DNA from: Planctomycetota bacterium
GTDB taxonomy: Bacteria; Planctomycetota; JACOTG01
Assembly (NCBI GenBank): GCA_016178505.1
Contig: JACOTG010000272.1
Location: forward strand, 1 to 42,025
Length of the DNA: 42,025 nt
Direction of reading: 5' to 3'
The position numbers and the translations under genes are program-made. Below the pieces are notes generated by a model. That model worked only from the letters and a program-made list of their open reading frames with translations, made no database searches and was not told the DNA's origin. Position 1 is the stretch's first letter, and every line of letters starts with the position of its first letter. Positions 2,365 through 36,277 of this stretch are shown piece by piece.

Positions 2365-4653
2365 TTAGTGTTTGTTCGACGTCGGAGCCGGCGGCCTCGC
2401 GACGAGCGGCGGAAGCCCTTCGTAGTCGATCCATCGCAGCGTCTCGATGTCCGGCAACAGCCCTCTCGCTTGTCCGGCCTTGTATTGATCGTTGGCGAAG
2501 CGGCGAGAGTCGTTGCCCGCTTCGTCGAGCACGAAACAAACCTCAGGCGGCCATCGAATCCCTTCGTTCTCCCAAACGCTTGCCGCGAGCGTCACGGCGC
2601 GCGGCGAAGTCAACTCGACGCCGCCCCAGTCGATCCGCGTGTGAATCGTGCGCAATGCCGCGAGGTTCTCGACCGGCCCGAGCCACTTGTACCAGACGAG
2701 CAAAGGGTCCTCGCGACGACCGCTTCGCACCAGGAAACGCTCGCGCTCGATGTGACCGTCCTCGACACGAAGCGCGAAAGCGACGATCGGATAGGGCATG
2801 TTCGGCAAGTCGAAGCCGTGCTCGTCCCATCGCGTTTCGCTGTTCATGCCGCTCATCACGAGCTCGTTCGATTCCCGCATCCAATGCACGCTGATGATCC
2901 CGCCGTCGTGCCAAGCGAGGAATCGCTCGTTGCCCACGAGGTCGAACACGCGAATCGCTTCCTGCGAGTACGGGGACGAATTCTCAACGACGACCACCTC
3001 GAGCCCCGGCGACCCCGGGATGAAGTCGTCGACGAGGAGATTGTCGGGAACGAAGTGAGCTTCGGGACGGCGCGGCACGCTCGAAGGCAGCTCCACTGGA
3101 CAGGCTGCGGACGTCCACACCGGATCGTTCGGTCGTTCGACGTCGTAGAAGCAGACGCGGCCCGCCATCGATCCATTGCCGGGCGCGAGCGAGTACGCGA
3201 CGACGGCAACGCGACCTCCGCCGAAGACCGACGAGCGGTCGACCATCGTCGCGCCGAGGATCGAGCCCTCCGCGCCGCCGCCCCACGTGTGCAGTCGGTA
3301 TCCAGTGACCGTTTCGAGGACAGCCGCGCGACGAGATGGGTCGACGCTCACGTGGCCGGGGCGTTGCTGGAGCCAGTAGATCCCGAGGGACGCCGTCAGT
3401 CCCACCGCCGCGAGCCCCACGACCAATCCCGCCGCGGCCGTCGTGACGAGCGGATGACGCGCCACCCAACGAACGGCTCGGCTCCATCTTCCCGGGAGGC
3501 GCGCGTCGATGGTCTCGCCCGCGAGATGGCGGCGCAGGTCGCGCGCCAGATCCGCGGCCGATTGATAACGGTTCTCTCGTCGCTTCTCGAGTGCCTTCAG
3601 GAGGATCGTTTCGATGTCGCCTCCGAGGCTTTTCGATATCTGGCTCGGCCGGAGCGGCGGCGTCGACACGACTTCCTTCGCCGCGCGCGCGATCGGAAGA
3701 TCGCGGACGTCGTACGGGAGACGCTCGCACGCGAGTTCGTAGAGCAACACGCCGAGCGAGTAGACGTCGCTTCGCACGTCGACGTCGTGCGGATGGCCGT
3801 CGGCCTGTTCCGGGCTGACGTACTGGATCGTCCCGAGGAAGTGCGCGTCGATCGTGAGGATCGTCGCGTTCGAGTCGTCGGGCGTGGTCGCGCGAGCGAT
3901 TCCGAAGTCGATCACCTTCGGTTGACCCGATGCGTCGACGAGGACGTTCGCCGGCTTGATGTCGCGATGGATGACGCCGCGTTGATGCGCGTGCTGCACG
4001 GCATCGCAGACGCTCGCGAAGAGACGGAGGCGCTCCCTCACGTCAAGCCCGGCGTCGCGCGCGTGCGCGAGCAGCGGCTTTCCGTCGACGAACTCCATCG
4101 AGAAGTAGGGTTGCGTGCCGAGCTCGGTTTCCGCCGTGCCGGCTTCGAAAATTTGCGCGATGCCGGGATGCTGGAGACGCGCGAGGATCGCCACCTCGGC
4201 GTCGAATCGGCGCAGAGTCCGCTCGGTCAGGAGACCTGGACGGATCACCTTCAGTGCGACGACTCGCCGCGTGTGTTGTTGCAGCGCGCGATAGACGACG
4301 CCCATTCCTCCTTGATCGATGACGCCGAGGATCTGGAAGGGACCGATAACGGCGGGATGGCGCTCGATCGGGCGAGCGCTCTCGACCTCGGCCGAGGCGC
4401 GCGCGTCGTCGTTGAAGAGCATCGCCTCGATCTCGGCGCGCAGCTCGAGGTCACCGCCGCAGGCTTCATCGAGGAAAAACGTACGCTGCTCGATCGCGAG
4501 GCGGCGGACTTCGAGAAACAGCTTGGGCAGGCGCTTTTCCCCTTCGGGCGTCATGTCGCGTCGCGTCCCCCCGTTTCGAGTCCTCGTCCGCGTGCGAGAC
4601 GAACGCAGTACTTCAATGAGAGGGATTCTCACCGACGCGATGGGCCGATTCAA
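2365..4653 (-). CDS. Membrane-anchored serine/threonine protein kinase with a large extracytoplasmic C-terminal domain
   Basis: Kinase motifs ALKVI (VAIK-like), HRDIKPANVLVD and DFGIA are present. The N-terminal region has ..FFLDEACGGDLELRAEIEAMLF.. typical of Acidobacteria-type STKs. One TM helix (VTTAAAGLVVGLAAVGLTASLGIYWL) is followed by about 330 aa of extracellular domain. The start may be the internal Met (MTPEGEK..). Confidence 0.9.
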   Translation of the reverse strand: MNRPIASVRIPLIEVLRSSRTRTRTRNGGTRRDMTPEGEKRLPKLFLEVRRLAIEQRTFFLDEACGGDLELRAEIEAMLFNDDARASAEVESARPIERHPAVIGPFQILGVIDQGGMGVVYRALQQHTRRVVALKVIRPGLLTERTLRRFDAEVAILARLQHPGIAQIFEAGTAETELGTQPYFSMEFVDGKPLLAHARDAGLDVRERLRLFASVCDAVQHAHQRGVIHRDIKPANVLVDASGQPKVIDFGIARATTPDDSNATILTIDAHFLGTIQYVSPEQADGHPHDVDVRSDVYSLGVLLYELACERLPYDVRDLPIARAAKEVVSTPPLRPSQISKSLGGDIETILLKALEKRRENRYQSAADLARDLRRHLAGETIDARLPGRWSRAVRWVARHPLVTTAAAGLVVGLAAVGLTASLGIYWLQQRPGHVSVDPSRRAAVLETVTGYRLHTWGGGAEGSILGATMVDRSSVFGGGRVAVVAYSLAPGNGSMAGRVCFYDVERPNDPVWTSAACPVELPSSVPRRPEAHFVPDNLLVDDFIPGSPGLEVVVVENSSPYSQEAIRVFDLVGNERFLAWHDGGIISVHWMRESNELVMSGMNSETRWDEHGFDLPNMPYPIVAFALRVEDGHIERERFLVRSGRREDPLLVWYKWLGPVENLAALRTIHTRIDWGGVELTSPRAVTLAASVWENEGIRWPPEVCFVLDEAGNDSRRFANDQYKAGQARGLLPDIETLRWIDYEGLPPLVARPPAPTSNKH

Positions 4654-4671: not shown

Positions 4672-5120
4672 CTACCGACGGCGGTTCGCGACGATCTTCG
4701 GGAACGACCGCGCGTGGATTTCGTCGATCGTGACGCCCGTCTTCGCCTTCGCCTCTTCCTCGGTGAGGGCGCCGCAGTTCACGGCACGCAAGAAGAAGTT
4801 CAACAGACCTTGGCCGGTCGCCGCATCGTCGAAGACTTCGCCAACGAGGGTTGCTCGTGCGGCGCTCTCCACGAAATGGCGGAGACGCTCGGCCGCCGCG
4901 TCGACGCTCTCGAAGAAGAACGCGTAGACCGCGAGTCCGCGCGGAAGAGATGCGCGCCGCCGTACACCGTGTGGATCGGTTGGCGACGCGTGGGTTCGCC
5001 CGGGTAGTGCGCCGACACCTCGGCATTGGCGCGCCGAACGCGCTCGAGTGCGGATCGCACGGCGTCGCCGGAAAAAGAAGTCGGTCGGTCCATCGCAAAG
5101 CCTCTCGGTTGGTTCGGCGT
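4672..5120 (-). pseudogene. Hypothetical protein interrupted by an apparent frameshift near 4990-5000 (two overlapping reading frames each carry half of a plausible protein)
   Basis: ORF 4800..5147 gives MDRPTSFSGDAVRSALERVRRANAEVSAHYPGEPTRRQPIHTVYGGAHLF with good composition, then becomes low complexity. ORF 4672..5172 becomes protein-like only from ..LAVYAFFFESVDAAAERLRHFVESAARATLVGEVFDDAATGQGLLNFFLRAVNCGALTEEEAKAKTGVTIDEIHARSFPKIVANRRR. This could be a genuine frameshift or a sequencing error. Confidence 0.35.
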
Positions 5121-5182
5121 GACGTCGATCGGATCCGCAAAAGGCATCGCTGCGCCGCCTCCCCCGCGCCACGGAGCCAGGG

Positions 5183-5300
5183 GTACGGAGCCAGGGTCAA
5201 CTCCGGCGGATTATTCCGCACTCGAACTCGGGATCGTAGCGTCGCCGACGGACCCCGCAACTGGGGAAAAATGTGGCGGAGTCGAGCCTGGCTCCGTACC
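5183..5300. repeat. Intergenic repeat element copy 1, about 118 bp with imperfect 19-bp terminal inverted repeats GTACGGAGCCAGGGTCAAC ... GTCGAGCCTGGCTCCGTAC, preceded by a partial tandem duplicate ACGGAGCCAGG
   Basis: It aligns closely with a second copy at about 8602..8717. Both ORF-track read-through translations show the same peptide, TEPGSTPADY..DP(A/E)TG(E/K)... Confidence 0.7.
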
Positions 5301-5860
5301 TCGAGTTTCGCCGCGGCGCGCTTCGCGTGCGGACCGACTTCTTCACGAGACCGCCGCGAATCTCGGCCTCCGCTCTCCGCCGACTCTGGAAGGAGCAAGA
5401 GGACCGAGATCCTCCGTTCGTAGGCCCGGTCGACCTCGCTCTGTTGAAGCAAACGGATCGAGAAAAGGACTACGCGGTGATCGGCGAGCTGGCGCGGTTG
5501 ATGGTCGATCCGAAAGAGCAGCTTCTCTTCTCGCGGAGTGCTCGCGACCTGATGCGACTCGGAGCCGAGCACGTCGAGTTGGCTCGGCGACTGTCGATAA
5601 AGCGACCGCTCCTGCGTCGTCTCGGCGGCACGCGGCAAGAGATCGAGCGCGAGCTCGACGCGGAGCGCCGCGCGTCGATGCGCGCGAACGAGCAACGCCT
5701 TTCGCGATTCGAGCGAGCGGCAAGGCGGTGGCGCGCCGCATGGGTTGGGGTCGACCGAGAGATCGCCGCGCTCCGCCTCATCGAAGCCCACCGGATCGTG
5801 GCGCGACGAGCCGTCGGTGTCTTGCCCTTTCGGGCGACGAGTGGGAGGTCACGACCGTGA
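5273..5860 (+). CDS. Hypothetical protein; the start is uncertain and the N-terminus overlaps the repeat element
   Basis: High GC3 and a protein-like composition (..DYAVIGELARLMVDPKEQLLFSRSARDLMRLGAEHVELARRL..). Its stop overlaps the GTG start of the next ORF (GTGA). Confidence 0.4.
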   Translation: MAESSLAPYLEFRRGALRVRTDFFTRPPRISASALRRLWKEQEDRDPPFVGPVDLALLKQTDREKDYAVIGELARLMVDPKEQLLFSRSARDLMRLGAEHVELARRLSIKRPLLRRLGGTRQEIERELDAERRASMRANEQRLSRFERAARRWRAAWVGVDREIAALRLIEAHRIVARRAVGVLPFRATSGRSRP

Positions 5861-6141
5861 GTGAGAAACGCGACGAGTTCTTGAGCGAGGAGGACCTCGA
5901 CCTTCGATCGCTTACGTTGAGAGAGCTGATCGCCTACTGGAACCTGTGGCTCAGGCAAGCGCAGGCGTCGAACGACCTCGATCGGCTCACCTACTCGCAC
6001 GGCGTCTTTCGAACCGAGCCCGACGTGCGGGCGCTGGCGCGAGCAGCGACGGCGAACAAGCCGCGCGAGCCGCGTCGCACGGCGTCGAGATCCGGCGGCA
6101 AGACCGTGCGTCGCTCGCGGGCGCCGCGCAAGCACCGCTGA
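5857..6141 (+). CDS. Small hypothetical protein (94 aa) with a GTG start overlapping the upstream stop
   Basis: VSEKRDEFLSEEDLDLRSLTLRELIAYWNLWLRQAQASNDLDRLTYSHGVFRTEPDVRALARAATANKPREPRRTASRSGGKTVRRSRAPRKHR reads as a structured N-terminus with a basic tail. GC3 bias is high and it sits in frame within ORF 5026..6141. Confidence 0.4.
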   Translation: MSEKRDEFLSEEDLDLRSLTLRELIAYWNLWLRQAQASNDLDRLTYSHGVFRTEPDVRALARAATANKPREPRRTASRSGGKTVRRSRAPRKHR

Positions 6142-6224
6142 ACTCACGTCGCCCATCCCACGATCGAGCAATCGCGACGTCGCCCTTGTTGGCGATGGGC
6201 GATCCAGTTCAGAATCCCGCCCCA

Positions 6225-7700
6225 ATGAAACGCTGGCTCACGCCGTGGCGAGTCGTCGGGTTCGCGGCCGGCATCGCGGCGTTCCTTGCGATCGCGCTCG
6301 CCGACTCGCCGCTCCACCACGTCGAGGGGATGGGGCGCCGCCCGGCGTACGCGGCCGCCGTCACGTCGCTCATGGCGATTTGGTGGCTCACCGAAGCGTT
6401 GCCGATCCTCGTCACCGCGTGCGTGCCGCTCGTGCTGTTCCCGCTGCTCGGCGTTTTTGGCGACGGCTTGGGCGTCAACGTTGGGAGCACAATGCGCCCC
6501 TACGTCGATCCGTACATCTGGCTCTTCATGGGCGGGATGGCGATCGCGGCCGCGATGCAGCAGTGGCGGCTGCACAAGCGCATTGCGCTTTCGATCATGA
6601 AGGCGATCGGCACCGAGCCGAAGCGGCTCTTGCTGGGGCTCCTCGTCGCGACGGCGTTCATCTCGCTTTGGATCTCGAACACGGCGACTGCCACGATGAT
6701 GCTGCCGATCGGGCTCGCGATCATCGCGCAGCTCGAGGCGCAGTCGGGCGGCCGGCGGCTCGAGCACTACGGCGCGTCGCTGATGCTCGCGATCGCGTAC
6801 GCCTCGAACGTCGGCGGCATCGGCACGAAGGTCGGCACCGCGCCGAACACGCAGTTCGCGGGCTTCTGCTCGCAGAACCTCGGCATCGAGGTCTCGTTCC
6901 TGAAGTTCGTGGCGCTCGGCCTTCCGTTCGTCGCGATGTTCCTGCCGATCGTCTGGTGGGCGCTGTGGCGTACGGGCCGGCACGATGCACCGCACTCGTC
7001 TGCGTCGGTCGTCGAGCGCGAGCTCGCCGCGCTCGGCCCGATGCGTCGCGAGGAAAAAGCGGTGCTCGGCATGTTCCTCGTGACCGCCGCGTTGTGGATC
7101 TCGAGCCAACCGATCACGGCGATGCTGCGGCCGCTGGGCAACGGCATCGTTTCCGATTTCGGCTCGAAGTACGTCGAAGGGACGATTGCGATCGTGGCGG
7201 CGCTCGTGCTCCTCGCGACGCGACTCCTCGATCGGCGACAACTGCGTACCGTCCCATGGCTGACGCTGATCCTTCTCGGCGGCGGCTTCTCCATGGCGGC
7301 GGGGATCGAGAAGAGCGGGCTGTCGTCGTGGCTCGGAAGCGAGCTTCGGGTGCTCCGCGACGTGCCGCCGGTCGCGCAGGTCGCGGTGGCGAGCTTTGCT
7401 GCCGTCGGGCTCAGCGCGGTGTGCTCGAACTCCGCGACGGTCGCCGTGATGCTCGGCGTTCTCTACCGCGCCGTGTCGCGCACGGAGGTGATGAGCGCGC
7501 TCGCCGCGACGACGCTCGGCGCCTCGTGCGACTTCATGCTCCCCGCGGGCACGCCGCCAAACGCCATCGTCTTCGGCAGCGGCTATCTCACGATCCGGCG
7601 CATGGCAAAGACGGGCGTCGTGCTCGACCTTCTCGCGGCCACGCTCGTCGCGATCTGGTGCTCGATCGTGACACGATTCCTCTTCGCGACGCCCGCATGA
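6225..7700 (+). CDS. DASS/SLC13 family anion:sodium symporter (sulfate/di- or tricarboxylate permease type)
   Basis: It is polytopic, with the hallmark SNTATATMMLPI and a second SNSATVAVMLGV repeat typical of DASS/SLC13 transporters. The start is set at MKRWLTPWRVVGFAAGIAAFLAIALA (ATG 6225), in frame with ORF 5946..7700. Confidence 0.85.
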   Translation: MKRWLTPWRVVGFAAGIAAFLAIALADSPLHHVEGMGRRPAYAAAVTSLMAIWWLTEALPILVTACVPLVLFPLLGVFGDGLGVNVGSTMRPYVDPYIWLFMGGMAIAAAMQQWRLHKRIALSIMKAIGTEPKRLLLGLLVATAFISLWISNTATATMMLPIGLAIIAQLEAQSGGRRLEHYGASLMLAIAYASNVGGIGTKVGTAPNTQFAGFCSQNLGIEVSFLKFVALGLPFVAMFLPIVWWALWRTGRHDAPHSSASVVERELAALGPMRREEKAVLGMFLVTAALWISSQPITAMLRPLGNGIVSDFGSKYVEGTIAIVAALVLLATRLLDRRQLRTVPWLTLILLGGGFSMAAGIEKSGLSSWLGSELRVLRDVPPVAQVAVASFAAVGLSAVCSNSATVAVMLGVLYRAVSRTEVMSALAATTLGASCDFMLPAGTPPNAIVFGSGYLTIRRMAKTGVVLDLLAATLVAIWCSIVTRFLFATPA

Positions 7701-8593
7701 GTGAGATCGCGCTGCGAGTGCGCGGGCCGCTCGACGTCGCGGCGACGCTGGCGCGCTATCGCCGCTTCGGCGACGACCCAACGAACGCGTTCGCCGGCGA
7801 TTCGCTCGTTCGCGCGCTGCGCGTCGAGGGCGAGGTCGTGCCGTACGAGGTGCGCTGGTCCGGGCCCGTCGATGACGTGCGTCTCGCGGCGCGCGTCTCC
7901 GGGCGTGCGCGTGCGCGCGTCGTGGACGCCGTCACCGCCGACGTCGAGAGGGTCTTCGGGCTCGGCTTCGACATCGACGGCTTCTACGCGATGGCGAAAC
8001 GGGACCGCGTGCTCTCTCCGCTCGTTCGCCGGCACCACGGCTTCCGCCCGACGCTCGGGTCGAGTGCGCTCGAGAGCCTCGTGGGCGCGATCGTCGCTCA
8101 GCAGGTGAATCTCACGTTCGCGTTCCGACTGCGCGAGCGGCTCGTGAGGCGGTGGGGCACCGAAGCGTCGTTCGCGCGAAGCAGGGTCTTCGCGTTCCCC
8201 GAGCCCTCGACGATCGCGCGAGCACTGCTGGCCGAACTTCGAGCGATGCACTACTCGCAACGGAAGGCCGAGTACGTGATCGAGGTCGCGCGCGCGCTCG
8301 CATCCGGATCGCTGGAGGCGGCCGCACTCGCGGCGTCCGACGACGCGACCGTGATCGAACGACTCACGGCGATTCGAGGGATCGGCCGCTGGTCGGCCGA
8401 TTGGTACCTCGCGCGCCACCTCGGCCGGGGCGCCGTGTGTCCCGCCGGTGACCTCGCCGTGCGCAAGGCGTTCGTCCGCTTCTGCGGCATCGCGCCGACC
8501 GCCCGCGAGGACGCCATCCGAAAGCGCTCCGCGGCGTGGGGCGCGCACCAAAACCTGGCAATCCACTACCTCCTCGCCGGGCTGCGGACGTGA
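7697..8593 (+). CDS. alkA: DNA-3-methyladenine glycosylase II-like (AlkA / HhH-GPD superfamily) base-excision repair glycosylase
   Basis: It has an AlkA-like N-terminal domain (MSEIALRVRGPLD..) and an HhH-GPD region (..LTAIRGIGRWSADWYLARHLGRGAVCPAGDLAVRKAF..). The ATG overlaps the transporter stop as ATGA. Confidence 0.75.
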   Translation: MSEIALRVRGPLDVAATLARYRRFGDDPTNAFAGDSLVRALRVEGEVVPYEVRWSGPVDDVRLAARVSGRARARVVDAVTADVERVFGLGFDIDGFYAMAKRDRVLSPLVRRHHGFRPTLGSSALESLVGAIVAQQVNLTFAFRLRERLVRRWGTEASFARSRVFAFPEPSTIARALLAELRAMHYSQRKAEYVIEVARALASGSLEAAALAASDDATVIERLTAIRGIGRWSADWYLARHLGRGAVCPAGDLAVRKAFVRFCGIAPTAREDAIRKRSAAWGAHQNLAIHYLLAGLRT

Positions 8594-8601
8594 ACCCACG
8601 C

Positions 8602-8717
8602 GTACGGAGCCAGGGTCAACGCCGGCGGATTATTTCACACCCGAACTCTTGACGGTCGCGACGCCGTCGGATCCCGAGACTGGGAAAAACGTGGTGGAGT
8701 TGAGCCTCGCTCCGTAC
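8602..8717. repeat. Intergenic repeat element copy 2 with terminal inverted repeats GTACGGAGCCAGGGTCAAC ... GTTGAGCCTCGCTCCGTAC
   Basis: It is about 80% identical to copy 1 over roughly 116 bp and lies between alkA and the next gene. Confidence 0.7.
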
Positions 8718-8828
8718 TCGGCAAATGGACCGCAAAGCCACGCGCTAGTTAGCGTCGCCCGGGATATCATTCAGCCGGCGTCCGCATCGCCAGCCGTGCG
8801 AAGCCCGCATGAGAAGAGAGGAACGGTC

Positions 8829-10166
8829 ATGAATTCCAATTACGCCAAGAGAGGCCTCGTCGTCGGTGTGCTGGCGCTGTCGTCGCCGAGCGCGGCGTTG
8901 AGCCGTCAGGATCGCGGCGCCCCCGACGCCGCCAAGCCCGCGCCCGAAAAGTCCGCGAGCGACGAGTTGATCAAAGCGGGCGAGCGGCCGAACGTCGTGA
9001 AGATGCTCACGGACTACTTCAACGCGAATCGACGAAAGCGCGAAGAGTCGTTCCCGGATCTCGAAAGGAAGCTCGACAAGGCGCTGAAGCCGCTCGGCAT
9101 CGACGATCTCCTGAAGCGACCCGAGGCCCTTCGACTCCTGATCCAGGACACGGTGACGAGAAAGCCGCCGACCGGGAAGGGTCACGTCGTTCCGAACAAG
9201 AAGGCGCAGGTCCAGGGGTCCGAGCGCGCATACGAAGTCGAGTACGCGTACTGTGTGCCGAAGAACTACAACCCGCAGACGACGTACCCGCTCATCCTCG
9301 CGCTTCCGCCGAACGGAGTGGCGGGAGAGAAGTACCTCGAGACGTTCAAGGACGACGGCTTTCGAGACAAGTTCGTGCTCGTCGCGCCGACTCTTCGCGC
9401 CGGCGAGAGCTGGTTCTCCGAGGTCGGACTCATCAAGCTCATCGGCGGAGCGTTGCGGACGGCGCTCGACGATTTCAACGTCGATCCCAATCGCGTCTTC
9501 CTCGACGGCACGGCGGAAGGCGGCGAGGACGCGCTGAAGCTCGGCAGCTCGTATGCGGACTTCTTCGCGGGAGTGATTGCGAGATCGGCGACTCCGAAGA
9601 GCGTCACGGCCGCAAACTTCAAGAACCTCCCGCTCTTCGTCGTCTATGCCGCGGACGATCCGAAGATGAAGGGCGACGCCCTCGGCAAGTTCCTGGGAGA
9701 ACTCGACGCGTTGCACACCAGCGCCGCGGTCGAAAAGACGTCGGGTCGCGATCACGGCGCGTGCGTCGACGCGACGCCGAAGATCCTTGCGTGGCTTGCG
9801 GACAAGACGCGATCGCTCGAGCCCGCGGAGATTCGCTGGTCGACGTCCGAGCCCAAGTACGGTCGCGCCTATTGGCTCACGATCACGAAGATGGAGACGA
9901 GCACCGACGCCGTCGCGCAAGTCTCGGCGAAGGCGGACCGGTCGAAGAATCGCATCGAGATCACGTGCACCGACGTGAACGAGGTCCGCGTCTGCCTGAA
10001 CGACAAGATCGTCGACCTCGGCAAGCCGATCGAAATCACGATCAACGGCAAGCCAGCGTTCAGTGGAAAGAAAGACGGAACGTTCTCTCACGCGCTCGAC
10101 GAGTACCTCCAATCCGGAGACCCGTGCCGCCTGTTCACCGCCAGCATAACGCTCCCCGTCAAGTAA
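8829..10166 (+). CDS. Secreted alpha/beta-hydrolase-fold protein of the esterase / PHB-depolymerase type; I cannot find a canonical GxSxG nucleophile, so it may be non-catalytic
   Basis: Signal peptide MNSNYAKRGLVVGVLALSSPSAALS. The esterase-like core is ..YEVEYAYCVPKNYNPQTTYPLILALPP..FVLVAPT..VFLDGTAEGGEDAL..LPLFVVYAADDP... The ORF-track start at 8448 is read-through of the repeat element. Confidence 0.6.
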   Translation: MNSNYAKRGLVVGVLALSSPSAALSRQDRGAPDAAKPAPEKSASDELIKAGERPNVVKMLTDYFNANRRKREESFPDLERKLDKALKPLGIDDLLKRPEALRLLIQDTVTRKPPTGKGHVVPNKKAQVQGSERAYEVEYAYCVPKNYNPQTTYPLILALPPNGVAGEKYLETFKDDGFRDKFVLVAPTLRAGESWFSEVGLIKLIGGALRTALDDFNVDPNRVFLDGTAEGGEDALKLGSSYADFFAGVIARSATPKSVTAANFKNLPLFVVYAADDPKMKGDALGKFLGELDALHTSAAVEKTSGRDHGACVDATPKILAWLADKTRSLEPAEIRWSTSEPKYGRAYWLTITKMETSTDAVAQVSAKADRSKNRIEITCTDVNEVRVCLNDKIVDLGKPIEITINGKPAFSGKKDGTFSHALDEYLQSGDPCRLFTASITLPVK

Positions 10167-10601: not shown

Positions 10602-11986
10602 CCGTCCCCGCGCTCCGGGCAGTGCTTGCGGTAGTAGTGGCGGAACTGGTGATACGACATGCCGAGTGCGCGCGCGGCCGCCGACTGATTGCCGCCGGCG
10701 TCGCGTAGTGCGTCCTGGATCAAGCGCTTCTCGAGATCGTCGCATTGCGCTTTGAACGTGCCCGAGGCCGGCGCGTCGACGTCGTCGCTCGGGAGGTCGA
10801 TGTCCTCGGGCGCGATCTCGGGGCCGGTCTCGCGGTAGACCGCGCGCTCGATGAGGTTCTTCAGCTCGCGCACATTGCCGGGGAATCGATAGCGCTTGAG
10901 GCTCGCGAGCGCGGCGTCCGACAGCTTGCGGCCGGAAAGCGCCGGCACCTCGCGCTGGAATCGCTCGAGGAAATGGCGCGCGAGGAACTCCACGTCGTCC
11001 GGCCGCTCGCGGAGCGGCGGAATGTGGATGACCTCGAACGCGAGGCGGTCGTAGAGGTCGCGCAGGAACGTGCCCTCGCGCATCTTCGCTTCGAGGTCGG
11101 CGTTCGTGGCCGCAACGATGCGGACGTCGACGCGCACCTCAACGGCGCCGCCGACTCGCGAGAACGCGCCATACTCGACGACGCGCAGGATCTTCTGTTG
11201 GAACGCGAGCGACGTGGTGCCGATCTCGTCGAGGAAGAGCGTGCCGCCGTCGGCTTGCTCGAACTTGCCCGGCACGGTGGCGGCCGCGCCGGTGAACGCA
11301 CCGCGCTCGTGTCCGAAGAGCTCGCTTTCGAGGAGCGAATCGGCGAACGCCGCGCAGTTCACCACAACGATCGGCCGATCCGCACGAGCCGACGCGTCAT
11401 GGATGAGCCGCGCGACCAGCTCCTTGCCGGTGCCGCGCTCGCCGGTGACGAGCACGGGCCGCGGAATCGCGGCGACGCGCCGTGCCCGCTCCAGCACGCG
11501 CGCGATCTCCGGTGACGAACCGACGATCTCCCAGCGCTCATGCTCGCCGGCGCTGAGGCGGCGGTTCTGCTGCGTGAGCACGCGGTTCGTGGCGATGAGT
11601 CGCAGCATGCGCCGGATCTTCCCGAGCTGCGTGGCGACTCGCTCGGGGAGCGGATGGCGCCTCACGAGGAAGTCGGTGGCGCCGTCGGCGATCGCGCGAG
11701 CCGCGGAATCGACGTTGCCCTCGGCCGCGACGCCGACGATCGGAAGATCGCGATCGAGCGCGCGAATCTCTCGAAGCACTTCGGTGCCGCTCTGCCGCCC
11801 ATCGCCGAGGAAAGTGTCGACGACCACGAGGTCGCACGGCGCATTCGATCGCAGCCGCGCGAGGAGATCGGCCGCGGACGAAACGCACTCGACCGTCGCA
11901 CCCGGGCTCAACGCGGAGCGGAACGCCTCGGCAAGCTCGCGGAGATCGCCGGCCGGCGTGTCCACGATCAGCACGTTTCGCAGCAT
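10598..11986 (-). CDS. Sigma-54-dependent two-component response regulator (NtrC family: REC + AAA+ sigma-54 activator + Fis-type HTH)
   Basis: The start is MLRNVLIVDTPAG.. (REC, ..DLVVVDTFLGDG..). The AAA+ domain has GERGTGKE (Walker A), the GAFTGA sigma-54 contact motif and ..GTLFLDEIG... The C-terminal HTH is ..QSAAARALGMSYHQFRHY... The upstream extension of ORF 10598..15577 is non-coding and antisense. Confidence 0.9.
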   Translation of the reverse strand: MLRNVLIVDTPAGDLRELAEAFRSALSPGATVECVSSAADLLARLRSNAPCDLVVVDTFLGDGRQSGTEVLREIRALDRDLPIVGVAAEGNVDSAARAIADGATDFLVRRHPLPERVATQLGKIRRMLRLIATNRVLTQQNRRLSAGEHERWEIVGSSPEIARVLERARRVAAIPRPVLVTGERGTGKELVARLIHDASARADRPIVVVNCAAFADSLLESELFGHERGAFTGAAATVPGKFEQADGGTLFLDEIGTTSLAFQQKILRVVEYGAFSRVGGAVEVRVDVRIVAATNADLEAKMREGTFLRDLYDRLAFEVIHIPPLRERPDDVEFLARHFLERFQREVPALSGRKLSDAALASLKRYRFPGNVRELKNLIERAVYRETGPEIAPEDIDLPSDDVDAPASGTFKAQCDDLEKRLIQDALRDAGGNQSAAARALGMSYHQFRHYYRKHCPERGDG

Positions 11987-20269: not shown

Positions 20270-22966
20270 TCAGTTCACGCGGAGGATGATCGCATTGGTC
20301 ACGCTGGCGCCCATCCGGTTCGCCGAGCCGACGTCGCGGATCACTCCCTGCAACGTGACGACTCTCGCCGAGCCGAGGCCCGCGCTCGAGCGCAGAGTCC
20401 ACGGGGCTATCGGCGGACCGGGGCGACTGCGCGCCGCGCCGCAACGCATCCCATTCGATCGGCCGCCTCCGACGCATTGCACGGGCTGCGGCAACTGGCC
20501 GGCGTGAAGCGGAGTCGGATTCGCGACGAGGCCGAGGCGCGTGCCTCGGCGCTCGAGCGCCACGCAGTTCCTCGGCTCGCCGTTCCACATCCACAGCACG
20601 TATTGGCCGCCGACGGATCCGGCGGGAGCAGCATCGAGGTGCACTTCGAGTGGTGAGCCGACGGCGGTGTTGACCACGCGCCGCGCGTCGCCCGCCGTTC
20701 GGTTCACGAAGAGAACGTCGGCGATCGATCCGGCCCCGGCGTTCACGTTTCCGCGTCGCACGGATGCCGTGCCTTCCCACCGCGCGAGGTTGCCCGCGAC
20801 AGCGGTCCCGATTCTCGTGAAGCTACCGCCTACGTACAGCGCCGGTCCTTTGCCATCATCGAAGGCGCCAAGAGCGCTCACCCCGAGCGAAGAAGCGTTG
20901 CCGTTGAATGCGTCTCCCAGTTCCGACCAGGCGACTCCATTCCAGCGAGTCACCACGAACTCGTACGCGGCGAATCCGCCGGCATGGAGGGCGGCGCCCG
21001 ATCCGTCGTCGAACACCGACAGCGCACCGATGCCCGTCGGGCGAGAGGGGTCCGAGGCGTCACCCACCACGGAGAACCCAGTGCCGTTCCAGCGGGCCAG
21101 CGCCTGCGCTTCAACGCCTCCCGCAGTCGTGAAGCCGCCGCCGACGTAGAGCGCCGGGCCGGAGCCGTCGTCGAAGGCAGCGAACGAATCAACCACGCCG
21201 GACGAATTGGAACCAACGCCCGCGCCGACGGGCGACCAGCCGTTCCGAGTCCATCGCGCGAGGTTCGACATCGGCACGCCGCCGACCGTGGCGAAGTGAC
21301 CGCCGGCGAACAGCGCCGACCCGCTGCCGTCATCGAACGAGCGTAGCGCCAGGACTTGCGTTCCCACTCCTGACGCGATCGTCCCGCCTGGCGAAAGCGC
21401 TGACCACGCGCTGCCGTTCCATCGGGCGATGAAGATCGCGCGGACTCCTCCCGCGAGGCCGAACGAGCCGCCGGCGTAGAGCGCCGGGCCCGTCCCATCG
21501 TCGTGAACGACGAGCGTGTCGACGGGACCGTTCATCCCGCTCGAGAGCGGCGACCAACTCGTCCCGTTCCAACGCGCGATGTCCGACGCGGGGACGCCGC
21601 CCGCCATCGTGAAGTATCCCCCGGCGAAGAGCGCCGGGCCCGTGCCGTCGTCGAACACGGCGAGCGCTCGAACGTCGCCGTCCATGCCGCCGCCGAGAGA
21701 GGCCCAGTTGCTGCCGTTCCAGCGAGCCACGTCGTTCAGCGCCATCGCGGTCCCACTCGAGAAATCGCCCCCGACGTAGAGGGCGGTTCCCGTACCGTCG
21801 TCGAACGTCGCGAGCGCGTGAACTTTTCCAGTGATTCCCCGCGTCACGGCCGACCACGACTGTCCGTCCCAGCGCGCGATGTAATGCGCCTCGGTGACGG
21901 GTTGGTTCACGCCGACGAAGCGTCCCCCCGCGAAGAGCACGTTTCGGCCCGCTTCCGGACAGGACGCAATCGTCCGTGCCTCGCCATTGGTGTTGCTCGA
22001 GAGCGCGGACCAGTCGACGCCATTCCATCGGGCGACGCTGGCGAAGCCTGCGCTGTAGAGCGCCGGTCCGCTTCCGTCGTCGTGGATCGCGAACTTGTTC
22101 AAGCCGATCCTCTGGATCGACGTCCACGTGTTCCCGTCCCAGCGAGATCCGACGTGAAGCCCTCCGGCGTAGAGTGCGGAGCCGGCACCGTCGTCGAAAG
22201 TAATGAGCGCGTTCACGTCGTCGGCGAGCCCGCCGCCGACTCCGGACCACGCAGCACCATTCCACCGTGCGACGTGCCTCGCCGAGATTCCTCCGATGGT
22301 GGTGAATTCGCCTCCGGCGAAGAGCGCCGGCCCCGTGCCGTCGTCGTAAACCGCGAGAGCGTGGACCGGGCCGTTCGCACCGCCCGCAAGCGGCAGCCAG
22401 GCGGAGCCGCTCCACTTCGCGAGATAGTTGACTCGCTCACCGCTCGATGTCCGAAATCGCCCGCCCGCGAAAAGCGCCGGTCCGGTCCCGTCGTCGAACG
22501 TGGCGAGTGCAAGGACCATTCCGTCGACGCCGTTGCCGAGAGCGGACCAGCGGCTTCCGTTCCAGCGAGCGACGCCGTTGGCGGCGACGTCGCCGGCCTG
22601 GGTGAAGCCACCTCCGGCATAGAGCGCGGGGCCCGTGCCGTCGTCGTGAACGAAGAGTTCGCGAACGGTCGCGTTGGTCCCGCTGCCGAGTGGGCTCAAC
22701 GCCGTGCCGTTCCACCGCGCGATCCGAGAGAGCGACTCCACGCCGTCCGTCACGAATTGACCGCCGACGTAAAGCGCGGGACCGCTGCCGTCGTCGAACG
22801 CGGCTGCCGCTTGGACGTCATCGTCGAGGCCCGGAGTCGCGAAGAGCCCTGCGGTCCACTCCCCGCAAGCGTCTTCCGCCGCGCAGGGCGATGACGCGAG
22901 CATCGCCGTGAGCGATCCCGCGATGAGCAAAGAACGACCGGGAACGCTCCGCAGAATCGAGATCAT
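20270..22966 (-). CDS. Secreted protein with about 15 tandem roughly 50-aa Kelch-like beta-propeller repeats ending in the shared CTD (CTD family member C)
   Basis: Signal peptide MISILRSVPGRSLLIAGSLTAMLASSPCAA. The repeat consensus is ARWNG(S/T)aWS.LG.G.NG.V.AL..FDDGtGPALYaGG.F..AGGv.A. The C-terminus has ..LGLVANPTPLHAGQLPQPVQC..GASVTNAIILRVN. Confidence 0.8.
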   Translation of the reverse strand: MISILRSVPGRSLLIAGSLTAMLASSPCAAEDACGEWTAGLFATPGLDDDVQAAAAFDDGSGPALYVGGQFVTDGVESLSRIARWNGTALSPLGSGTNATVRELFVHDDGTGPALYAGGGFTQAGDVAANGVARWNGSRWSALGNGVDGMVLALATFDDGTGPALFAGGRFRTSSGERVNYLAKWSGSAWLPLAGGANGPVHALAVYDDGTGPALFAGGEFTTIGGISARHVARWNGAAWSGVGGGLADDVNALITFDDGAGSALYAGGLHVGSRWDGNTWTSIQRIGLNKFAIHDDGSGPALYSAGFASVARWNGVDWSALSSNTNGEARTIASCPEAGRNVLFAGGRFVGVNQPVTEAHYIARWDGQSWSAVTRGITGKVHALATFDDGTGTALYVGGDFSSGTAMALNDVARWNGSNWASLGGGMDGDVRALAVFDDGTGPALFAGGYFTMAGGVPASDIARWNGTSWSPLSSGMNGPVDTLVVHDDGTGPALYAGGSFGLAGGVRAIFIARWNGSAWSALSPGGTIASGVGTQVLALRSFDDGSGSALFAGGHFATVGGVPMSNLARWTRNGWSPVGAGVGSNSSGVVDSFAAFDDGSGPALYVGGGFTTAGGVEAQALARWNGTGFSVVGDASDPSRPTGIGALSVFDDGSGAALHAGGFAAYEFVVTRWNGVAWSELGDAFNGNASSLGVSALGAFDDGKGPALYVGGSFTRIGTAVAGNLARWEGTASVRRGNVNAGAGSIADVLFVNRTAGDARRVVNTAVGSPLEVHLDAAPAGSVGGQYVLWMWNGEPRNCVALERRGTRLGLVANPTPLHAGQLPQPVQCVGGGRSNGMRCGAARSRPGPPIAPWTLRSSAGLGSARVVTLQGVIRDVGSANRMGASVTNAIILRVN

Positions 22967-33610: not shown

Positions 33611-36277
33611 ATGACCCACGAACCACAGTCGCATTCACCCGTCCGCTTCTTTTTCATCACGGCCCTCACGCTTGCGATCTCGACCGCGGTCGCGTCGGCT
33701 CAAAGCCCGTGTGCGGAATGGGCTCCGGGGTTGACCTCGTTTCCGGGCGTCGACGGCGTCGTGTATGCGTCGACCGTCTTCGACGACGGCACTGGCCCAG
33801 CGCTTTACGTCGGCGGCATCTTCTCGTCGGCCGGCGGTGTGGCCGCTCGCAACATTGCGAAATGGAATGGATCGGGCTGGTCGTCGCTCGGCGGGGGAGT
33901 CGGCGGAGGCTATCAGTCGATCCACGTGATGGCGGCGTTCGACGACGGCACGGGCCCCTCGCTCTACGTCGGCGGCGAACTCACGGATGCGGCGGGCATA
34001 CCGGTTCAGCATCTCGCGCGATGGAACGGCCACCAGTGGTCGGATCCGGCGTCGTTCATGAATGGCAACGTCGAGAGTCTCGGCGTCTACGACGACGGCA
34101 CGGGGCCTGCGCTGTTCATCGGAGGAGACTTCACGACCGCGGGCGGTGGCATCGGAAATCACATCGCAAAATGGGACGGCCGACAGTGGTCGTCGCTCGC
34201 CACCGGCGTCGACGGCCCGGTCCTCGGACAGACCGTCTTCGATGACGGCAGCGGCTCGGCGCTCTACGTCGTCGGCAACTTCGCGCTGTCTGGTTCCGTG
34301 TACAGCAATGGCGTCGCGCGATGGAATGGCACGGCGTGGTCTCGACTCGGGGCGGGAGCGGCGTCGTACTATCCGTGGTGCGCGGTCGTTTTCGACGACG
34401 GCACCGGCCCGGCGCTCTACGTGGCCGGCCCGTTCCACATGATGGACGGCATTCCGATGAACGGTTTCGCCCGGTGGAACGGGCACGAGTGGTCGTCGCC
34501 GCCGAACGGTGAGGGAACTCGATTGATGACCGTCTGGGACGATGGCACCGGCCCGGCCATCTTCTCTTCGGGGACCGGAACCATTCGGAAGTGGGATGGC
34601 CATCAATCCTCGACGGTACCAGGTGCACCGGGCCCATCAACTCTCACGGTGTACGATGACGGGAGCGGCGCCGCGCTCTTCGTCGGCGGAGACTTCACCC
34701 TCATTGGCGGCGCGTTCGTTCCGTTCATCGCGAAGTGGAACGGCGCGACGTGGTCGACGCTTGGGACTTTCGCCGGACCCAACGGTTGGACGAAGAGCAT
34801 CGCCAGCGCAGACGATGGCACGGGCCCGGCCGTGTACGTGGGAGGTGACTTCGGCGCCGTCGGGCAGGTGGCGGCGAATCACATCGCGCGATGGAACGGG
34901 ACGACATGGTCGCCACTCGGCCTCGGGATCGACGGCTTTCGCGATGCGACGGTTTCTGCAATTGCGGCTTTCGACGACGGCACCGGACCCGCGGTGTATG
35001 CAGGTGGATCGTTCTCCACCGCTGGCGAAATGCCGGCGTCCAACATTGCGAAGTGGAATGGGAGCACGTGGTCGCCGCTCGGGAGCGGTCTGAACGACCG
35101 TGTGCTTGCTCTCACGTCGTTCGACGACGGCAGCGGACCGGCACTCTACGTCGGCGGTCCGTTCCGCACGGCGGGAGGGGTACCGGCGGCGTACGTTGCG
35201 CGCTGGAATGGAAGCGCATGGTCCACGGTTGGCCGCGAGGCGACTGGAAGCATCGTCGCGTTCACCCTGTTCGATGGCGGAAGCGGTCCCTCATTGTGCG
35301 CACTCGGCGCGTTCACCTTCGGCTTCGGAGTCGCTCGGTGGACCGGCGTGAACTGGTCACCCGTGGGCGCTTTTTTTATGGGCAGTGGTTCGTCGTTGAC
35401 CGTGTTCGACGACGGCACCGGACCGACGCTCTATGCCGGTAACACGTACGGGGTCTCGCGGTGGAATGGGATCACTTGGGCGAACCTCGGAAGCGGAATG
35501 GATGATCGCATCCTTTCGCTCGCGACGTTCGACGACGGATCGGGCGCTGCGCTGTACGCGGCCGGACGGTTTCGGCACGCGAACGGCGTCGCGGCGAATA
35601 AGATCGCGCGATGGAATGGCACCTCGTGGTCGTCGCTCGCCGAGGGCTTGGGAGGCACGCCTCAGTCGGAGGTTTGGGCACTTGCGACGTTCAACGACGG
35701 CACCGGGCCGGCACTTTGTGCGGCGGGCACGTTCGTCACGGCGGGAGGTTTTGCCTCGCGCTTCTGCGCGCGCTGGGAAGTCGCACCGCGACGCGGAAAC
35801 GTGAGTGCGCGAATTGGCGAGACCGCAGACGTCGTTTACGTGAACGGATCCGCGGGCGACGCGACGCGAACCGTCACCGTCGGCCTCAGCCGATCGATTG
35901 ACGTCGAGCTGCGCGCGGCGCCCGGCGGGCCGTCTCCTGCACGCTATGTCTTGTGGAGCTGGCTCGGCGAACCGCAGCAACCGGTCGAGCTTCGAGTCGG
36001 CAGTTCGTCGCTCGGTTGCGTCGTGAACCCGACGCCGCTTCAGCCTGCGCAGATTCCGCAACCGTTTCGGTGCCTGCGAGGCCGGCTGGTTCCGCGAGCC
36101 GCGTGCAGCGGCGTGATCGAGGTCCCGAGCCCGGCAGCCGCGCCGTGGAGCCTGCACTTGCCGCAAGGCGTCGGCGCGCCGGTGGTGGTGACGCTGCAAG
36201 GCCTCATTCGCGACAAGAGCGCTCTGCATCCGTCGGGCTACAGCGTGACCAATGGCGTCATCCTGCGAGTCCGCTGA
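33611..36277 (+). CDS. Secreted protein with about 15 Kelch-like beta-propeller repeats ending in the shared CTD (CTD family member E); paralogue of 20270..22966
   Basis: Signal peptide ..VRFFFITALTLAISTAVASAQSP. It has the same repeat consensus (A.WNGs.WSsLG.G..g.v.a...FDDGTGPaLYvGG.F..AGG..a). The C-terminus has ..LGCVVNPTPLQPAQIPQPFRC..GYSVTNGVILRVR. Confidence 0.8.
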   Translation: MTHEPQSHSPVRFFFITALTLAISTAVASAQSPCAEWAPGLTSFPGVDGVVYASTVFDDGTGPALYVGGIFSSAGGVAARNIAKWNGSGWSSLGGGVGGGYQSIHVMAAFDDGTGPSLYVGGELTDAAGIPVQHLARWNGHQWSDPASFMNGNVESLGVYDDGTGPALFIGGDFTTAGGGIGNHIAKWDGRQWSSLATGVDGPVLGQTVFDDGSGSALYVVGNFALSGSVYSNGVARWNGTAWSRLGAGAASYYPWCAVVFDDGTGPALYVAGPFHMMDGIPMNGFARWNGHEWSSPPNGEGTRLMTVWDDGTGPAIFSSGTGTIRKWDGHQSSTVPGAPGPSTLTVYDDGSGAALFVGGDFTLIGGAFVPFIAKWNGATWSTLGTFAGPNGWTKSIASADDGTGPAVYVGGDFGAVGQVAANHIARWNGTTWSPLGLGIDGFRDATVSAIAAFDDGTGPAVYAGGSFSTAGEMPASNIAKWNGSTWSPLGSGLNDRVLALTSFDDGSGPALYVGGPFRTAGGVPAAYVARWNGSAWSTVGREATGSIVAFTLFDGGSGPSLCALGAFTFGFGVARWTGVNWSPVGAFFMGSGSSLTVFDDGTGPTLYAGNTYGVSRWNGITWANLGSGMDDRILSLATFDDGSGAALYAAGRFRHANGVAANKIARWNGTSWSSLAEGLGGTPQSEVWALATFNDGTGPALCAAGTFVTAGGFASRFCARWEVAPRRGNVSARIGETADVVYVNGSAGDATRTVTVGLSRSIDVELRAAPGGPSPARYVLWSWLGEPQQPVELRVGSSSLGCVVNPTPLQPAQIPQPFRCLRGRLVPRAACSGVIEVPSPAAAPWSLHLPQGVGAPVVVTLQGLIRDKSALHPSGYSVTNGVILRVR

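Follow-up and report, generated by a model that had tools for sequence, protein, structure and literature searches.

Two copies of a hairpin-forming repeat in the window

A 42-kb stretch of DNA from a Planctomycetota bacterium, referred to throughout as the window, contains two copies of a short repeat with inverted arms at its ends. An earlier note, made from the sequence alone, had placed two copies of about 118 bp at about 5183-5300 and 8602-8717, about 80% identical over their full length, each with a 19-bp left end and an imperfect reverse complement of it at the right end. These observations hold up. The copies were located at the boundaries given in Table 1, where repeat positions are numbered on the window, + strand, and a global alignment over the full length showed identity in 98 of 117 columns (83.8%). 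Exact matches to the 19-mer GTACGGAGCCAGGGTCAAC stand at 5183 and 8602, and inverted ones, each with two mismatches, end at 5299 and 8717. Four matches to this arm were found in the window, against 0.00 expected from 100 dinucleotide-preserving shuffles, and a profile built from 72 arms of relatives matched just four window arms (E 2.6e-8 to 1.9e-5, in 42 kb). The flanks of the two copies are unrelated, with 14 of 30 and 6 of 30 nt identical in the 30 nt beyond each end.

The long imperfect hairpin that the note had predicted is also borne out by folding, which was better than in shuffled controls on either strand. For copies 1 and 2 respectively, z scores of the RNA fold against shuffles were -6.1 and -2.6 on the + strand and -6.6 and -3.7 on the - strand, and those of the single-strand DNA fold were -6.4 and -2.6. 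The right arm of copy 1 retains an intact small palindrome, GGAGCC.A.GGCTC, which is disrupted in both left arms (GGAGCCAGGGTC). The last 25 nt of the right arm of copy 1 are the arm consensus of elements in the metagenome-assembled genome (MAG) JAPLOF01, and both window left arms carry the identical three departures from that consensus. Because these derived arm mismatches are common to both copies, and because the copies differ at 19 of 117 columns, the two are probably old descendants of one already imperfect copy and are now decaying. On the same reading of the arms and differences, they may also be inactive.

Immediately upstream of copy 1 lies the partial tandem duplicate of its left end that the note had reported. 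The 11-nt ACGGAGCCAGG at 5171-5181 stands 14 nt upstream of its copy at 5185-5195, and alone it is non-significant (nhmmer E 6.9). Its reading as a slippage footprint is plausible; similar half-copies abutting GTAC recur in other genomes (see below).

Table 1. Coordinates of the repeat copies, their arms, the neighbouring genes and half-copy structures at other loci (numbers with the prefix L denote loci).
Feature	Position	Strand	Remarks
Ser/Thr kinase	2365-4653	-	
Decayed DUF6986 gene	4672-5147	-	
Partial tandem duplicate of left end, abutting copy 1	5171..5182	+	ACGGAGCCAGG + G, 12 nt; read from sequence
Copy 1, REPIN-like element	5183..5299	+	117 nt; GTAC tag at both outer ends
Copy 1 left arm	5183..5220	+	GTACGGAGCCAGGGTCAACTCCGGCGGATTATTCCGCA; departs from family consensus at positions 14, 17, 24
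Copy 1 right arm	5262..5299	-	last 25 nt GGCGGAGTCGAGCCTGGCTCCGTAC, containing small palindrome GGAGCC.A.GGCTC
5'-truncated gene	5303..5860	+	without credible start; homologous to residues ~93-268 of the 268-aa L110 protein
DASS transporter	to 7700	+	
AlkA-like glycosylase	7697-8593	+	stop codon 8591-8593
Copy 2, REPIN-like element	8602..8717	+	116 nt
Copy 2 left arm	8602..8639	+	
Copy 2 right arm	8680..8717	-	ending …GGTGGAGTTGAGCCTCGCTCCGTAC
Secreted protein	from 8829	+	
Half-copy structure	L119 481-685		one junction exactly at GTAC
Half-copy structure	L141 3803-4047		one junction exactly at GTAC
Half-copy structure	L077 1092-1259		one junction exactly at GTAC
Half-copy structure	L045 4245-4389		one junction exactly at GTAC
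Arm form as written, tag + body			GTAC + GGAGCCAGGCTCCACCCCCGC
Arm form as written, type expected beside a transposase gene of the source genome			...GCTCGACTCCGCCG

Coding frames around the copies were assigned by frame analysis of GC content at third codon positions (GC3), Pfam scans and translations. Copy 2 begins 8 nt past the AlkA-like stop codon, and 111 nt separate its end from the next gene start, in agreement with the intergenic or gene-edge position that the note had given both copies. Copy 1 does not sit in a simple spacer: the 5'-truncated gene directly adjoins it, and the start of the decayed DUF6986 gene is 89 nt away. A metagenome contig from JGI (L110), whose AlkA-like protein is 69% identical to that of the window, has the gene order DUF6986, a 268-aa gene, a small open reading frame (ORF), DASS and AlkA, and no arm is present at this syntenic locus. 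The 268-aa protein is encoded at full length at L110 250-1056 and has no Pfam match; the window ORF at 5303-5860 is 64% identical to it (BLASTP, E 1e-70). DNA homology to L110 stops near 5153 on the left side and restarts at 5300-5303, right behind the terminal GTAC of copy 1, which fixes the right boundary of the element. As judged from this comparison, copy 1 occupies a site where about 300 bp has been lost, including the start of the neighbouring gene, and so represents an insertion accompanied by an adjacent deletion. The DUF6986 remnant matches Pfam profile positions 3-38 and 326-408 in different frames, with a junction near 4941-4945. The profile gap and frame change imply that about 860 bp was lost internally and that a frameshift occurred; the junction shows no trace of an element. 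Given this remnant and the truncated homologue, copy 1 sits between two pseudogenes, and in practical terms the element is a marker of gene decay at this locus of the window. For copy 2 there is no clean empty site, since the closest AlkA homologue is just 69% identical and has a different downstream neighbour.

The stretch from 5188 to 8620 was also recovered in an independent assembly (L109, Logan SRR12113411), and its two breaks fall within the left arm of copy 1 and that of copy 2. The final 7 nt (TGAACCC) do not agree with the window and duplicate a string a short way upstream, so that this end is probably an assembly-graph artefact at the repeat. As the two copies have no common 31-mer, the breaks do not prove further copies and we did not use them as evidence.

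The repeat family and its partner transposase in Planctomycetota

A scan of species-representative genomes with GTACGGAGCNAGGNTCNAC yielded at least 108 loci, 43 of them in Planctomycetota, and another 50 loci came from a second scan, of metagenomes. Palindromic elements of 90-195 bp with the same ends (GTACGGAGCCAGGCTC...) are present in many Planctomycetota MAGs and metagenome contigs. Inverted arm pairs at distances of 95-195 bp occur in several of these MAGs (SJ175, LacPavin MAG_71_14, MBR_H10.14 and others), with several per 8-kb block; among the matches listed, SJ175 has at least 29 arms on nine contig blocks and JAPLOF01 has arms on at least 11 blocks. Single matches to GTACGGAGCNAGGNTCNAC in unrelated phyla are at the level of chance for 16 specified bases. 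Many family arms lie within the first or last 40 nt of contigs, as repeats break assemblies there. The search for further copies that the earlier note had proposed thus found elements with these ends, although in relatives and not in the source genome itself. Alignment of the window with the first 108 loci by blastn revealed no synteny. One locus (L037) holds two elements at a similar spacing of 3.4 kb, which we dismissed as coincidence because the intervening genes differ. Full-text literature searches, whose coverage is incomplete, returned no description of the repeat family in Planctomycetota and no relevant paper holding the sequence.

In each of the two window repeats, inverted arms of about 30-38 nt enclose a centre of about 40 nt, and an arm starts with GTAC followed by GGAGCC.A.GGCTC. 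The features of the family were derived from 36 distinct complete copies. The first 13 nt, GTACGGAGCCAGG, are almost invariant, and in most lineages the GTAC tag leads into the small palindrome GGAGCC.A.GGCTCC, which is absent in some (L116, L166). Within one genome about 25-31 arm nt are identical among copies; the next 7 or so inner-arm nt vary among copies, yet they are complementary between the arms of each copy, and the centre is variable. Many family members are perfect palindromes. Covariation was counted in 34 arm pairs, where 93.7% of cells are paired, versus 77% in shuffles and 33-41% with the partner slid, and both sides have changed in 25 of the 34 pairs. G-U pairs make up just 28 of 1224 cells. 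They are roughly one quarter of the departures from Watson-Crick pairing, the share expected without RNA-level selection, which points to a constraint on DNA and not on RNA. No direct repeat beyond GTAC was seen at 25 elements. With a crude gene caller based on GC3, elements in other genomes were found 0-10 nt from stop codons, often exactly filling the gaps between convergent genes.

Some loci contain further arrangements of the repeat. Two elements in L060 (5311-5405 and 6538-6632) have the identical following 25-nt flank, TCAGCGCAACGCCGCGCGCACGGCG, and each stands directly past the stop of one tandem paralogue, indicating that gene and element were duplicated together. A 93-bp subfamily (L112 11463-11555; also L114, L122 and L139) has as its centre the minimal 21-nt palindrome GTACGGAGCTAGGCTCCGTAC, a bare tag-stem-loop-stem-tag unit nested in the full element. 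Elements of the IS110 family (PF01548 + PF02371) are inserted at L082 5868/5869 and L168 14172/14173, at one arm position, right after TACGG(A/T)GCCA(G). The insertion point in L082 is the centre of the small palindrome GGAGCC|TGGCTCC, and the two IS110 elements have the common end motif CTTCTCATGGAA. These junctions suggest that IS110 elements target the repeat site-specifically; insertion of IS110/IS1111 elements into repetitive extragenic palindromic (REP) sequences is known.

The earlier note had proposed looking for a full-length insertion sequence (IS) with matching terminal inverted repeats (TIRs). A transposase flanked by the same ends does exist, and it is a Y1/HUH enzyme, not one of the DDE type. 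At one locus (L116) with a canonical element, an ORF of 354 aa with a Y1_Tnp domain (E 2.7e-8) lies 9 kb away; it scores 60 bits against the NCBIfam model 'REP-associated tyrosine transposase' (RAYT), for which the cut-off is 80, and lies between a 97-bp hairpin element and a lone inverted arm of the variant GTACGGAGTCAGGTGAG... The homologues of this protein make up a large family of 330-357 aa, many of them named RayT or 'transposase [Planctomycetota]' and many on contigs of about 1.2 kb. We examined this locus and nine more (L162, L163, L165, L166, L168-L172). Arms tagged with GTAC or ATAC adjoin the gene of about 340 aa at all ten, and do so on both sides at eight.

One link between enzyme and dispersed repeats comes from SJ175. 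On its contig JADLBP010000007 (L165) the RAYT gene occupies 3001-4074. The arm to its left, at 2884, is GTACGGAGCCAGGCTCCACCCCCGCTCGTTC, and the inverted arm to its right ends at 4112; these arms match the elements of about 96 bp present in the same MAG (L041, L047, L059, L060, L077) at 31 of 31 nt on the left and 30 of 31 on the right. On one strand both L165 arms (2884-2914 and 4082-4112) read GGAGCCAGGCTCC, with loop base A, so the loop base of the small palindrome is not inverted between the ends, unlike in the small SJ175 elements. Lineage-specific arms tagged with GTAC or ATAC stand on both sides of the gene at L163, L166 and L168, whereas at L162 the right arm is present and the contig begins within the left one. 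The gene at L171 stands between short, true REP-like hairpins (CCGTACGGTGTC.GACACCGTACGG), that at L172 stands between complete elements of 213 and 215 bp, and at L170 the arms lie 81 nt upstream and 620 nt downstream. At L169 a hairpin element is present upstream only; there, a direct repeat of about 95 bp (~9742-9834 and ~10999-11090) surrounds the hairpin element and the RAYT gene and resembles a duplication of the 5' portion of the gene downstream. In the stretches fetched for L168-L172 (13-21 kb) arms occur almost only beside the RAYT gene, with two weak arm-like matches of three mismatches in L168 as the exceptions, one of them beside an IS110 element. The arm variant tracks the RAYT lineage. 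In short, the ends of the window elements were shown to be those of a repeat family with members next to RAYT-type genes in related genomes.

Eight of the transposases were scanned and aligned. Six exceed the gathering score of Pfam Y1_Tnp (PF01797), and the H-F/Y-H and Y-I-D-x-N motifs are invariant. The best match of the eight-protein profile in the PDB is 4ER8, E. coli TnpA-REP (E 1.4e-4), while phmmer of one RAYT against the PDB gave no match. A C-terminal extension of about 200 aa follows, with matches to HTH_23 and Sigma70_r4_2 in two of the eight proteins, below threshold. No RAYT was found in the first 43 Planctomycetota loci listed, by a motif search and tblastn with an E. coli RayT query; the enzyme was first met among the loci of the second metagenome scan.

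Interpretation of the repeats and rival explanations

The elements belong to the known REP/REPIN class and are not a new kind of element. We consider it likely that the two window repeats are non-autonomous, hairpin-forming mobile elements that are REPIN-like, that is, of the REP-doublet or TIRYT type. The mechanistic analogy is with E. coli TnpA-REP, reportedly the subject of work by Ton-Hoang et al. and by Messing et al. in 2012. By this analogy, the RAYT would recognise the arms when folded in single-stranded DNA, along with the tag next to them, would cut and rejoin at the tag, and would thereby move or copy the doublet in trans. Any effects on transcripts, such as those of a hairpin in the 3'-untranslated region (3'-UTR) of the AlkA-like gene, would be incidental.

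Three features of the family fit an action on DNA hairpins. The arms covary by Watson-Crick pairs only. Half-copies recur with a junction exactly at the GTAC tag (Table 1), in the form of left arm and centre followed by a full element, of a full element followed by centre and right arm, or both; partial copies that abut a GTAC end are present upstream of copy 1 in the window and in L062, L014, L077, L045, L119 and L141. Finally, some elements are centred in longer palindromes, and others contain the minimal 21-nt palindrome at their own centre. None of the three proves the mechanism, for which replication slippage and template-switch correction of quasi-palindromes are alternatives. In L014 (2497-2547) and L062 (1509-1545) the terminal 10-mer GGCTCCGTAC is also repeated in tandem with 3-nt spacers, directly after a complete element, with four copies in L014.

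Several points weigh against the REPIN interpretation. No RAYT gene lies within the 42-kb window, and the window copies are degenerate, each arm pair having two mismatches within its first 19 nt and 6-7 when 38 nt are counted. This 117-nt subfamily is known from two copies only, and a metagenome scan for its left arm GGAGCCAGGNTCNACNCCGGCGGATTATT gave zero matches. Template-switch correction could keep quasi-palindromes palindromic without selection. The enzymes score 51-69 bits against NCBIfam REP_Tyr_transpos (NF047646), under the curated cut-off of 80. The tag is GTAC, not the GTAG of classical RAYT-associated REPs (PMC3733652), and mobilisation of REPINs by RAYTs was inferred, not demonstrated, in PMC3733652, PMC6006769 and PMC5581495.

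The earlier note had left the choice between a miniature inverted-repeat transposable element (MITE) and a structure of the REP type or bacterial interspersed mosaic element (BIME) type. The Y1/HUH enzyme and the lack of a target-site duplication favour the REP/REPIN branch, and the classical MITE fits less well. Under the latter explanation the repeats are internal deletions of an IS with the same TIRs and a DDE transposase, moved by cut-and-paste with a TA or GTAC target duplication. The inverted ends, small size and multiple copies agree with it; as the outermost GTAC is palindromic, a duplication of TA or GTAC would be indistinguishable from the repeat itself, the TA survives in degenerate ends (CTAC, ATAC, GTAT), and the unit of arm, RAYT and arm (about 1.2 kb) can be read as the parent element. 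We nevertheless regard a classical MITE as very improbable. Among the matches listed for the 43 Planctomycetota and 50 metagenome loci, no DDE transposase lies between arms spaced 0.4-3 kb apart, and the sole arm-bounded transposase in these 93 loci is Y1/HUH; no direct repeat extends outside GTAC. Moreover, the arms flanking the SJ175 RAYT differ from each other at positions 26-29 (TCGT versus GAGT), whereas the small elements carry one variant on both arms, a pattern that doublets of one repeat fit better than internal deletion does. A primary function in RNA, with the repeats conserved for the RNA hairpin as a 3'-UTR stabiliser, factor-dependent terminator, small RNA (sRNA) or attenuator, is improbable in our estimate. 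The predicted hairpin is strong, and many copies are probably transcribed as 3' ends, given the distance of copy 2 from a stop codon and of its relatives (0-10 nt); effects of REPs on mRNA stability and termination have been reported (PMC3733652), and side effects on mRNA from such copies are possible. The sRNA or attenuator role that the note had entertained found no support, however: no Rfam 15 match reaches the gathering score in the whole window, no T-run terminator occurs in 5000-9000, where the sequence past the copies reads CTCGAGTTTCG and TCGGCAAATGG, and G-U pairs are not enriched. Folding is equal on both strands, the centre is variable, the elements are linked to a transposase, and copy 1 lies in a disrupted locus between two pseudogenes.

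Integron attC sites, whose consensus cores R''/R' are RYYYAAC...GTTRRRY, are likewise imperfect palindromes of about 60-140 bp with conserved ends and variable centres. Were the repeats attC-like sites separating gene cassettes, same-orientation copies spaced by genes would be natural (3419 bp apart in the window, about 930 bp in L047), and GTTGAGC in copy 2 does fit the R' core. That GTT is confined to window copy 2, though, with most family members reading GTGGAGC or GTCGAGC; 12 conserved nt lie outside the core, and many copies are perfect palindromes without extrahelical bases. The three genes in the 3.4-kb interval are ordinary chromosomal ones, in synteny with a relative that lacks the element, no integrase is found among the 19 window ORFs scanned against Pfam (which include all genes between and beside the copies), and it is a RAYT that the arms flank instead. 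We therefore give an integron origin next to no weight. Local segmental duplication or chance similarity would account for there being only two copies in the window and none of the exact subfamily elsewhere, and is equally far-fetched: zero matches are expected by chance, the flanks are unrelated, and dozens of loci in other genomes have these ends. It is refuted by the existence of a repeat family with RAYT-flanking arms.

A bolder extension of the REPIN interpretation is that Planctomycetota harbour an undescribed, phylum-wide REPIN-RAYT lineage, in which long RAYTs bearing a helix-turn-helix (HTH) own GTAC-tagged hairpin doublets and the half-copies are footprints of RAYT cleavage and strand transfer at the tag. 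We regard this as doubtful. If it were true, the half-copies (window 5171-5182, L077, L045, L119, L141, L014) would be the first genomic record of REPIN copying.

Relation to known systems

The closest counterparts are REPINs with their RAYT transposases (Bertels et al., 2017, PMC5581495). As in those systems, two inverted short repeats form a hairpin of about 100 nt that is extragenic and multi-copy, a Y1/HUH transposase gene is flanked by the same repeats, and the repeat variant tracks the transposase lineage. The Planctomycetota arms differ in being longer (about 30 nt conserved per genome) and in the tag, GTAC versus GTAG; the enzyme is about twice as long (about 340 aa, with the C-terminal extension) and falls below the NCBIfam RAYT cut-off, and the host phylum is Planctomycetota versus Gammaproteobacteria. 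Nunvar (2010) and Bertels and Rainey (2011) are said to be further sources on REPIN/RAYT systems.

GTAG-tagged REPs arranged as head-to-head (HH) dimers (PMC3733652) resemble the elements in having an outer tetranucleotide tag and an inner stem-loop body, with partners 20-100 bp apart. They too lie mostly downstream of genes, between convergent or tandem genes, and complementary stem changes define their sub-families. Such REPs have been reported in the PVC group, including R. baltica (PMC3733652). Their tag is degenerate at positions 2-3, with GTGG in one family (PMC3733652), whereas in the Planctomycetota family it is position 4 that is changed, to C. In addition, the small stem-loop (6+1+6) is here just part of a longer conserved arm and is missing in L116 and L166.

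A further possible counterpart is TIRYT/TIRtrons (Di Nocera, 2013, PMC3733652), which have been equated with TnpA-REP subclass 2.1 (Quentin et al., 2018, PMC6006769). Common to both are long RAYT-like proteins with a C-terminal HTH-like extension (sub-threshold here), flanking TIRs instead of typical REPs, and repeats also dispersed as dimers. The TIRYT motif GGGG[AT][CG]A[CG] (GGGGWSAS) is absent from the Planctomycetota arms. Whereas Quentin et al. (PMC6006769) reported no REP-like sequences beside subclass 2.1 genes, all ten loci examined here have them.

MITEs of the ERIC/Correia type share the form of imperfect palindromes of about 100-150 bp, a location in transcribed intergenic regions and the absence of an encoded transposase. 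These MITEs duplicate TA and are not known to have a Y1 partner. The Planctomycetota elements, in contrast, have a Y1 partner, and no duplication can be shown for them.

REPIN-RAYT systems have been studied almost only in Proteobacteria, and the relation of RAYT-like proteins with C-terminal extensions (TIRYT/subclass 2.1) to dispersed repeats has so far been unclear. A clear pairing of enzyme and hairpin doublet across Planctomycetota would widen the range of long-lived intragenomic replicators. The natural partial copies and the IS110 insertions would offer material on how such elements are cut and targeted, and GTACGGAGCCAGG... would serve annotators as a simple marker of the repeats at which Planctomycetota assemblies break.

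The majority of the window's long repeats, direct and inverted, have another source, two paralogous proteins of about 890 aa at 20270-22966 (-) and 33611-36277 (+). These consist of repeats of about 50 aa (150 nt) with matches to Rax2-like beta-propellers, and genes of the Kelch, PD40 and Tricorn-type propeller kind lie near them.

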